Origin: a virus
Taxonomy: Duplodnaviria > Heunggongvirae > Uroviricota > Caudoviricetes
Strand: one strand, 5' to 3'
DNA length: 9,406 nt
IMG/VR virus record: IMGVR_UViG_2648501787_000010
Shown here: piece after piece, positions 6,574 to 6,943 of the stretch
Layout: the number at the start of each line of letters is the position of its first letter
How positions within the stretch are numbered: the stretch's first letter is position 1
Translations under genes and position numbers: made by a program
Notes under the pieces: generated by a model
What the model saw: the letters and a program-made list of their open reading frames with translations, nothing else
The model's database searches: none
Told to the model about the DNA's origin: nothing

Positions 6574-6763
6574 AGCTACCTCGATACTTTCGCTATCGTT
6601 GGTGGTTAGAAGCCCTGCATGTGTGCCACCACTGCGGGGCGTTGTTGTTTTGTGCATCGCACCATTCGTTTTTAACCTATCAGTAAGTGAATCGCACTTC
6701 AACTCTTTCTCTGAATTTTTTTTTGTGTATACTGAATCGCACCAACTTAGAGAGGATTCAGTA
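6574..6763. promoter_or_regulatory. divergent control region with three direct copies of an ATCGCAC(C) motif and a candidate -10 (TATACT 6727-6732) for the plus-strand RHH gene
   Basis: ATCGCACC at 6655-6662, TGAATCGCAC at 6688-6697 and TGAATCGCAC at 6733-6742. The last copy directly abuts the TATACT -10-like hexamer, which is preceded by a T-run. Region lies between divergent gene starts at 6573 (minus) and 6764 (plus). Confidence 0.45.
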
Positions 6764-6943
6764 ATGGCAACAGGTTCAACAAATAATAAGTCGCAACAGT
6801 TAAATGCCAGATTCCCGCATGATGTTGTTGCAGACTTAGAAAAAAATTTAGATGAAGGTGAAAGCAAGGCGCAATTTATAGTTACTGCCGTTAAAGGTGA
6901 GATCAAACGCCGCCAGCGTCGCAAGGCCAAAGAGCAGGAGTAA
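6764..6943 (+). CDS. small ribbon-helix-helix-like DNA-binding protein (59 aa), candidate repressor; possibly YlcI/YnfO-like
   Basis: GAGG SD 8 nt upstream of the ATG at 6764. Sequence LNARFPHDVVADLEKNLDEGESKAQFIVTAVKGEI has a beta-strand then two-helix layout typical of Arc/CopG-type RHH proteins, followed by a basic tail RRQRRKAKEQE. Family assignment is from memory only. Confidence 0.6.
   Translation: MATGSTNNKSQQLNARFPHDVVADLEKNLDEGESKAQFIVTAVKGEIKRRQRRKAKEQE

Follow-up and report, generated by a model that had tools for sequence, protein, structure and literature searches.

Repressors of the ribbon-helix-helix (RHH) type are associated with an antisense RNA in the immI region of phage P22, where Arc, Mnt and the sar antisense RNA are found at back-to-back promoters. 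Another arrangement has been described in the satellite P4, in which Eta is coupled to an alpA homologue and Kil is a truncated in-frame product with an internal promoter (PMC10111431, citing Forti et al. 1999); translation of Eta allows the upstream promoter to read through (PMC10111431). For the Gram-negative phage-inducible chromosomal islands (PICIs), whether a (global) repressor exists was called unclear in 2018 (PMC6092414), and the searchable literature on these islands mentions an activator only, AlpA. In the model element EcCICFT073, helper phages increase the transcription of alpA, AlpA overexpression alone leads to excision and replication without a helper, and AlpA activates its own promoter as well as a downstream 'ORF3' fusion (PMC6092414). 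We studied here a stretch of viral DNA of 9,406 nucleotides (IMG/VR record IMGVR_UViG_2648501787_000010; hereafter the window), which corresponds by its gene content to a phage satellite of the Gram-negative PICI or capsid-forming PICI (cf-PICI) type, and more precisely a gene encoding a 59-aa protein that is transcribed divergently from the replication operon, behind three short repeats. The whole case is computational. As the repeats shift in step with the DNA-reading residues of the protein across many bacteria, we regard the 59-aa protein as a strong and concrete candidate for the repressor not known in Gram-negative satellites; it is present in EcCICFT073, in cf-PICIs and in P4-like satellites.

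In its anatomy, the module around this gene resembles a hybrid of P22 immI, P4 immunity and the SymR/SymE pair, and by sequence it is a member of none of them. The comparison with immI shows no significant sequence match (hhalign probability 20%) and several differences in organization. The putative sites are single 11-bp units 35-45 bp apart, whereas P22 has a 21-bp operator bound by a tetramer; the gene presumably under control is an Icd-like gene followed by replication genes, instead of an antirepressor gene; and the repressor gene lies antisense inside another open reading frame (ORF). We found no paper giving a function to the YlcI/YnfO family, to which the 59-aa protein belongs, no paper linking an RHH repressor to Gram-negative PICIs or EcCICFT073, and none on AlpA antitermination in PICIs or on a SymR-like RNA in satellites.

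The 59-aa protein and its candidate operators

The first-pass annotation of the window, made from the sequence alone, had pointed out three copies of ATCGCAC spaced by 36 and 45 bp upstream of the 59-aa gene and had proposed them as operators. The three copies are indeed present, all on the plus strand (6656, 6691 and 6736), and the sole other copy in the window lies at 887 on the minus strand. The real repeat unit is longer: it covers 11 bp, (G/C)TG(A/C)ATCGCAC, in a general frame GTG-N5-CAC. The start-to-start spacing of the 11-bp sites is 35 and 45 bp, so that only the second of the two announced distances stands. Site 1 (GTGCATCGCAC; consensus elsewhere GTGAATCGCAC) is located at 6652-6662, site 2 (GTGAATCGCAC) at 6687-6697 and site 3 (CTGAATCGCAC) at 6732-6742. 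Dinucleotide shuffles of the 190-nt spacer gave any 7-mer in three copies in 0.5% of cases (98/20000) and three 10-mers within one mismatch in 0.3% (8/3000), i.e. a chance of about 0.003-0.005 for the repeats from the window alone. The comparative evidence for operators is much stronger than this in-window count.

We compared about 25 loci from more than 10 genera, including E. coli, Klebsiella, Salmonella, Citrobacter, Morganella, Proteus, Pectobacterium, Dickeya, Xenorhabdus, Yersinia, Cedecea and others. Nine of these loci, from seven genera (E. coli, Citrobacter, Morganella, Proteus, Pectobacterium, Dickeya and Xenorhabdus), share the strand KSQQLNARFP with the window protein. Among them, the three sites are 95-98% identical (95-97% pairwise for site 2) against 55-61% for the intervening spacers, the value for site 1 being computed without two Xenorhabdus loci where this site is inverted and shifted. 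The position of the sites is also largely constant. Site 3 is invariant, except for one base, in the nine class-A loci (classes are defined below) and lies at -31 from the ATG in all classes, and site 2 is found at -76 in nearly all loci and in every class examined. When the 9-mer repeated most often upstream of each gene was searched for without bias, the positions -31, -76 and -98/-111 from the ATG came out in nearly every locus. In the two Xenorhabdus loci, site 1 has moved to -98. Its orientation is thus free, and the inversion fits a dimer on a pseudo-symmetric site.

The site core covaries with residues 11-17 of the protein, in at least eight classes, and does not covary with the type of AlpA, primase or integrase. 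Class A, with strand QQLNARF and core TGAATCGCA, comprises 13 loci. Class B has strand QKLQARA and core TGGA(T/C)TCCA (operator form TGGATTCCA). The other pairs are QKIQARA with TGGAGTACA, RQKTARV with TGACTCCCA, QFMTARV with TGTGTATCA, QMTTVRI with TGAAATACA and, in EcCICFT073, QALKARV with TGTGGCCCA. All cores share a (G)TG-N5-CA(C) frame. The TG...CA flanks, which are invariant, go along with the nearly invariant R16, and the centre varies together with residues 12 and 14. Moreover, class-A sites are unchanged between a PICI with a D5_N primase and a P4-like element that has Psu, Delta and a primase of the alpha type, and they are also unchanged in loci devoid of the small gene located downstream of the RHH gene and in a decayed Pectobacterium remnant without int, alpA and primase. 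From this covariation and from the promoter-occluding positions described below, the three repeats are most likely operators of the 59-aa protein, which is the central result of this work. The protein/operator classes would then represent a natural RHH specificity code, linking residues 12/14 to the central 5 bp, that could be used for the design of orthogonal repressors.

The gene of the 59-aa protein (6764-6943, plus strand; MATGSTNNKSQQLNARFPHD...) is preceded, seven bases upstream, by the Shine-Dalgarno (SD) sequence GAGAGGA (6750-6756). Residues 9-50 match the NCBIfam family NF041551 (YlcI/YnfO) with 63.3 bits for a cut-off of 30 (E = 1.5e-17), RefSeq gives its E. coli orthologues the same family name, and the protein also matches phrog_949, of unknown function. 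For the YlcI/YnfO (DUF3950-related) family, uncharacterised so far, the analysis would provide a likely function. Among 1.84 billion representative proteins, a profile search returned only 94 relatives. Scanned singly, members of the family gave weak Pfam matches, mostly to RHH-type families (CB_ParB_C, RHH_1, PSK_trans_fac, TacA1, Arc, RHH_5 and NikA), those of the relatives to the first six being below threshold, with E-values from 3e-4 to 0.08. One member of the wider alignment that includes K-12 YlcI (A3) scored 1.9e-20 against DUF3950. An AlphaFold2 monomer model built on a 56-sequence alignment (predicted local distance difference test score, pLDDT, of 89.6) shows an extended segment at residues 10-17 and helices at 19-27 and 35-58. 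The strand-helix-helix order within about 45 residues, which is the RHH layout, agrees with the layout predicted at first pass. A first model, based on a shallow alignment, had a pLDDT of 68 and a strand folded as a helix, which the deeper alignment from the profile search fixed; the Foldseek search with this first, poor model gave no matches. The hhalign alignment to Arc is weak (P = 0.0012). It places S-Q-Q-L-N-A-R-F-P on P-Q-F-N-L-R-W-P of Arc, and in this register Q12, N14 and R16 fall on Q9, N11 and R13, the base-contacting residues of Arc. Residues Q12, N14 and R16 (followed by P18) are the putative base-reading residues. Finally, the 59-aa ORF of ten orthologues has a ratio of nonsynonymous to synonymous polymorphism (pN/pS) of 0.14, with third-position differences 5:1 over those at first and second positions. 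Overall, the RHH assignment is well supported.

The NCBIfam family of the 59-aa protein also includes YlcI of prophage DLP12 and YnfO of prophage Qin in E. coli K-12 (DUF3950). Both have the R-F-P motif in the strand and the two-helix layout, and the identity to YlcI is 23% over 31 residues. The context of K-12 ylcI differs from that of the satellite module, as the gene lies in a lambdoid prophage beside cos, divergent from the small-terminase gene nohD (locus L028, 3252-3834). CATCTAC repeats are found upstream of this ylcI. The RHH proteins omega (pSM19035) and CopG show no sequence relationship with the 59-aa protein, and they have contiguous heptads or a contiguous operator where the sites are separated here.

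The positions of the sites coincide with two predicted promoters, both read from sequence conservation. The leftward promoter (6674-6702, minus strand) consists of a -35 box TTGAAG (6702-6697), a 17-nt spacer and a -10 box TAGGTT (6679-6674). In the nine-locus alignment (A2), T-12, A-11 and T-7 of this -10 box are invariant and its three other positions vary, and the other classes retain TTGA(A/G)G-17/18-TAnnnT. Most of the 17-nt spacer is site 2, and site 1 lies at about +5 to +15 of the leftward transcript. The RHH gene has, on the plus strand, a -10 box TATACT (6728-6733) preceded by a T-run and without a good -35, 100% identical in the nine loci. Site 3 spans about -2 to +9 of this promoter and so overlaps the end of its -10 box and its start point; the third copy, described at first pass as abutting the box, overlaps its last two bases. 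A protein at these sites would exclude RNA polymerase from both promoters, from which repression of the leftward operon and autoregulation are expected. Most likely, the 59-aa protein thus represses the Icd-like/primase operon and regulates its own gene, a sign of regulation that we infer from this geometry.

Two observations go beyond the three sites. A perfect 9-nt inverted repeat (TACTGAATC at 6730-6738 and GATTCAGTA at 6755-6763) brackets site 3 and the SD of the RHH gene. Its distal arm varies with the operator class (ATGACTCC/GGAGTCAT in locus L021), and the repeat might represent either a leader hairpin or a fourth, weak half-site at about 22 bp from site 3. In addition, long forms of the protein (102-103 aa, with an extra C-terminal helical extension) come with five or six TGAAT(C/A)NCA sites in a regular 22-23-bp lattice, in place of three sites (L022, 2870-3000; L038, 4870-5000). 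This lattice suggests a higher-order assembly.

Antisense RNA candidate and long frame on the opposite strand

The first-pass annotation had described the DNA between the divergent genes as a shared control region of 190 bp. The true divergent-promoter DNA covers about 95 bp (6652-6745), and 6571-6650 would correspond to a structured antisense RNA or 5' untranslated region (UTR). The region is also not purely intergenic, since the whole stretch lies in an open minus-strand frame. Both the candidate antisense small RNA (sRNA) and this long antisense ORF had been missed.

The candidate sRNA (about 6571-6650, plus strand) overlaps the beginning of the Icd-like gene, which opens the leftward operon, and is complementary to the SD and AUG of this gene. 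The loop of hairpin 1 bears the complement of the Icd-like SD. Hairpin 2 (6608-6643) is GC-rich and followed by a U-run, forming an intrinsic terminator that stops just before site 1. With RNAalifold, the 19 loci aligned gave -31.8 kcal/mol on the plus strand against -4.3 on the minus strand, with 95% of cells paired and compensatory changes in 15 of 25 pairs. No shuffle out of 500 reached this level of pairing and no slid register came close. Many of the pairs are G-U and hence possible on the plus strand only. A candidate extended -10 element, TGGTATGAT (6558-6566, plus strand), lies within the first Icd-like codons, at a suitable distance upstream of the RNA, and in most of the other loci a TAnnnT hexamer precedes the 5' end of the sRNA by 7-8 nt even though the codons differ; we infer that TGGTATGAT is the -10 of the sRNA promoter.

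This candidate cis-antisense RNA over the Icd-like ribosome-binding site and AUG resembles SymR of E. coli K-12 (RF01809), a cis-antisense RNA of about 80 nt starting at the start codon of its target, in its two hairpins plus terminator and its complementarity to SD and AUG. From the 19 satellite sequences we derived a covariance model (R1), which matches the annotated symR of MG1655 end to end, with 30.7 bits and an E-value of about 7e-6, E-values of such a home-built model being rough. In the other direction, the Rfam symR model finds relatives at 35-36 bits (L009 and L023), below the gathering score of 61, and gives no match in the window itself. The target also differs, as it is here an Icd-like or Ash gene and not SymE. 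No match to the Rfam C4/isrK models was found at E<=1 in the window and 10 relatives, nor at E<=10 locally, and an RNA immunity of the P4/P1 type was therefore rejected.

On the minus strand, the frame of the Icd-like gene remains open for 299 more codons. It crosses in turn the 5' UTR, the two promoters, the RHH gene and the plus-strand gene after it, and reaches up to alpA. The resulting ORF (6388-7413, 341 codons, in frame with the Icd-like gene) starts at the ATG 7413, 20 nt after the alpA stop, with its own SD (GAGGTG, 7426-7421). In the spacer of about 190 nt, this frame contains no stop codon in 15 of 19 loci, when the two other minus-strand frames contain 4-12 each, and an ATG with SD is present within 24 codons of the frame opening in 10 of 16 loci. 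From the stop-codon depletion and the SD, the hypothesis of a chance artefact was rejected for the long ORF; pN/pS, fold and family evidence led to the same rejection for the RHH ORF as an antisense artefact, the mirror (minus) frame having a pN/pS of 0.22 against 0.14 for the plus frame. The long-ORF products are alike only over the shared module. Their upstream parts are unrelated and no family match was found for them; translation, rather than the product, thus seems to be what is kept. A tblastn search (E<=1e-3) with a 346-aa ORF against 50,697 phage records returned one record only, the satellite vB_KppS-Ant, and not P1 or P4, so that the search revealed no P4 or P1 homologue of the long ORF. 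In this induced and packaged satellite (LR881103.1; L040, 3449-4423), the depositors annotated the long ORF only, and a 67-aa YlcI-type gene on the opposite strand (3853-4056) is left unannotated within it.

A gene antisense within a frame that is kept open, together with a SymR-like RNA, represents compact overlapping regulatory layers, and the nesting is that of eta/kil in P4 (PMC10111431). As in P4, a long ORF (7413 to 6388, with the start at 6573 in frame) appears translationally coupled to an alpA/vis homologue and contains, in the same frame, a short product associated with cell killing or with inhibition of division, which an internal early promoter would express. As in P4 too, this internal promoter would be held down during quiescence, and translated read-through from upstream would lead into the replication operon. 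The two systems differ in the nature of the control. Here it would involve an opposite-strand protein repressor and a cis-antisense RNA, when in P4 a same-strand RNA, CI, acts on seqA; the Rfam C4/isrK models give no match here, and tblastn gives none to P4 Eta/Kil.

Proposed mechanism and alternative explanations

The explanation that best accounts for these observations, to which we give a probability of about 0.68, combines an RHH repressor of an internal early promoter, an sRNA layer and a bypass by alpA-coupled read-through. An RHH dimer would read the 11-bp GTG-N5-CAC sites. In the quiescent state, the protein bound to sites 2 and 1 would occlude the leftward promoter of the Icd-like, DUF4222 and primase genes, and at site 3 it would limit its own promoter, while the SymR-like sRNA would block leaky Icd-like mRNA at its ribosome-binding site. 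Upon activation of alpA by a helper, transcription would run on into the alpA-coupled long ORF and then into the replication operon. This read-through would enter the early operon upstream of the repressed promoter, antisense across the repressor transcription unit, and as it is translated it would resist both Rho/termination and the antisense sRNA. EcCICFT073 shares the module and is induced by AlpA alone, and so the anatomy fits an internal early promoter bypassed by alpA-coupled read-through. Such a bypass, similar to PLE/PLL in P4, appears to fit better than an inactivation of the repressor by the helper as for Stl of the Staphylococcus aureus pathogenicity islands (SaPIs).

Several observations weigh against this interpretation. 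A consensus promoter scan called neither the leftward nor the rightward promoter. The 59-aa protein matches no Pfam family at E<=0.1 and does not reach the gathering score of DUF3950 (PF13132), and searches of the PDB sequences with the protein and with the profile gave no match to a solved RHH protein. The structure model is monomeric, the dimeric ribbon being assumed. Class-A sites are weakly symmetric, and they lie 35-45 bp apart when the arrays of Arc, CopG and omega are contiguous, which makes cooperativity uncertain. The loci compared are phylogenetically related, and the covariation counts do not correspond to independent events. A bound repressor could also be a roadblock for the proposed read-through. 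Finally, the module is one among several alternatives in this zone of satellites; the 1061-bp query described below, which also covers the Icd-like gene, matched 1686 of 5426 E. coli genomes. The module is thus not 'the' universal PICI repressor.

The master repressor proposed at first pass, holding the satellite silent until a helper cue, would be in its strict form the sole lock of the element, removed by a protein of the helper phage as with Stl in SaPIs. The gene order does recall SaPI Stl and Rpr of Gram-positive PICIs, where the repressor gene is divergent from the excision/replication operon of the satellite; here the operators lie on the early promoter, and the many specificity classes could match a helper-specific induction. 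We nevertheless consider it unlikely, given that EcCICFT073, in which the module is present, is induced by AlpA alone and that helpers raise alpA transcription (PMC6092414): the sufficiency of AlpA makes a removal by the helper unnecessary. Activation by AlpA is the known inducer route in Gram-negative islands (PMC6092414). Furthermore, int and alpA lie outside the operator-controlled divergent unit, and the protein is an RHH, when Stl and Rpr are helix-turn-helix proteins, and has at 59 aa no obvious additional domain on which an antirepressor could act, although forms of 102-103 aa exist. Of the first-pass proposal, the divergent placement and the repeats as operators are supported, and the master repressor awaiting a helper cue is not supported in the form proposed. 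A little less probable still would be a toxin-control (addiction-like) cassette, in which the RHH protein and the sRNA mainly keep the Icd-like division inhibitor off and control of replication is incidental, a reading partly compatible with our model. The constant partner of the RHH gene is indeed the first leftward gene (Icd-like, or Ash in Salmonella L036) with the SymR-like RNA, and the primase is not an invariant partner. In Pectobacterium, these three elements are still found beside fis, in a neighbourhood devoid of int, alpA and primase, which is consistent with an addiction-like cassette left after decay of the island; since the module survives there without replication genes, its conserved partner is the Icd-like/Ash gene and not the primase. 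SymR is itself a type I antitoxin RNA and the RHH fold is common among antitoxins. In intact satellites, however, the replication operon begins with the Icd-like gene and its ORFs overlap or abut, so that repression of this gene would extend to replication. The toxicity of the Icd-like protein comes from annotation only, the tblastn search at E<=1e-3 having returned one satellite record and neither P1 nor P4, and in all loci the RHH gene is divergent from the Icd-like gene, unlike the order of type II toxin-antitoxin operons with an RHH antitoxin.

We regard as very improbable that the repeats serve another factor, as AlpA sites, primase iterons or promoter elements, and that the small ORF is a by-product of the long one. 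It is true that the long ORF of the minus strand is open, with an SD of its own, that the annotators of LR881103.1 called it alone, and that the pN/pS of the mirror frame is low (0.22). On the other side, the sites track the class of the RHH strand across differing AlpA, integrase and primase families, and as they persist with a different or absent AlpA they were rejected as AlpA sites. They were likewise rejected as iterons or as an origin, since the origin-like array at 3860-4095 has another sequence, T(A/G)TCTACC, in at least 10 copies. The low pN/pS of the plus frame, its conserved SD and ATG, the confident RHH model and the curated family match all speak for the small ORF, and the long-ORF products are unrelated outside the module.

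Beyond the repressor with sRNA layer and read-through bypass that we favour, a wider scheme may tentatively be put forward, which we hold as possible and rather doubtful: a three-layer bistable switch, not previously described and common to PICIs, cf-PICIs and P4-like satellites. In this scheme, the repressor gene would be antisense inside a translated eta-like ORF; AlpA read-through would at the same time silence this gene by convergent transcription, gain access to the early operon from upstream of the repressed promoter, and override the SymR-like RNA by translating across its target; and the classes of protein and operator, at least eight in number, would define immunity (incompatibility) groups of satellites, as in lambdoid phages. 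If this were true, the question of the repressor of Gram-negative PICIs would be answered for a large share of these elements.

Distribution of the module and other features of the window

The window contains, on the minus strand, an integrase gene (8165-9406) and an AlpA-family gene (7433-7639; Pfam PF05930, E = 5.6e-9) located upstream of the long ORF and coupled to it; alpA encodes the activator in related PICIs (PMC6092414). The primase operon, from which the RHH gene was correctly described as divergent, is closely packed on the same strand: the Icd-like gene (6573 to 6388; 61 aa, NCBIfam NF033153, E = 2.8e-19; SD GAGGT) heads it and is followed by a 75-aa ORF, a DUF4222 gene and a D5_N/DUF5906 primase gene (5859 to 4105). 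A single-stranded DNA-binding protein (SSB) gene, major capsid and decoration protein genes and a terS-like gene are also present on the minus strand. On the plus strand, a second small gene (6986-7174; 62 aa, phrog_21027, E = 1.5e-15) has no assigned role and is probably carried by the same transcript as the RHH gene. This transcription unit ends on an intrinsic terminator candidate (7252-7275) and is convergent with alpA. The 62-aa gene is present in EcCICFT073 and L001 and missing from L004, L005 and L032, whose operators are identical; it is therefore dispensable for the operator/protein pairing.

A 1061-bp query covering the module and including the Icd-like gene (a stretch of about 1 kb) matches 1686 of 5426 complete E. 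coli genomes, where RefSeq labels read 'Icd-like protein', 'YlcI/YnfO family protein' and 'hypothetical protein'. In strain CFT073, EcCICFT073 lies between roxA and phoQ and has the gene order and the module of the window. More generally, the module is found in PICIs, cf-PICIs and P4-like satellites. In the Pectobacterium loci beside fis (L029-L031, 5440-6190), the RHH gene and the operators are retained together with the Icd-like gene and the antisense-RNA region, and the long in-frame ORF is closed by stop codons.

Annotation of this zone is inconsistent between records: the Prokaryotic Genome Annotation Pipeline (PGAP) places the Icd-like start codon within an operator, and the RHH gene is missing from another record. 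The PGAP start (6657), which gives a product of 89-94 aa (extension at 6574-6657 in the window; 7990-8274 in L001), was rejected. It falls inside site 1, about 10 nt from the deduced transcript start, and this ATG exists only where site 1 has an A to C change and is missing in other genera. The conserved start is at 6573, with its SD.

Two other features of the window may be mentioned. The T(A/G)TCTACC array is dense, has copies in both orientations and lies directly after the primase stop codon; it probably represents the replication origin. Between the terS-like gene and the gene that precedes it, which encodes 114 aa, an imperfect palindrome of about 85 nt (920-1006) was scored as a hairpin on both strands by an unrelated microRNA model, and could be a bidirectional terminator or a packaging-related site.

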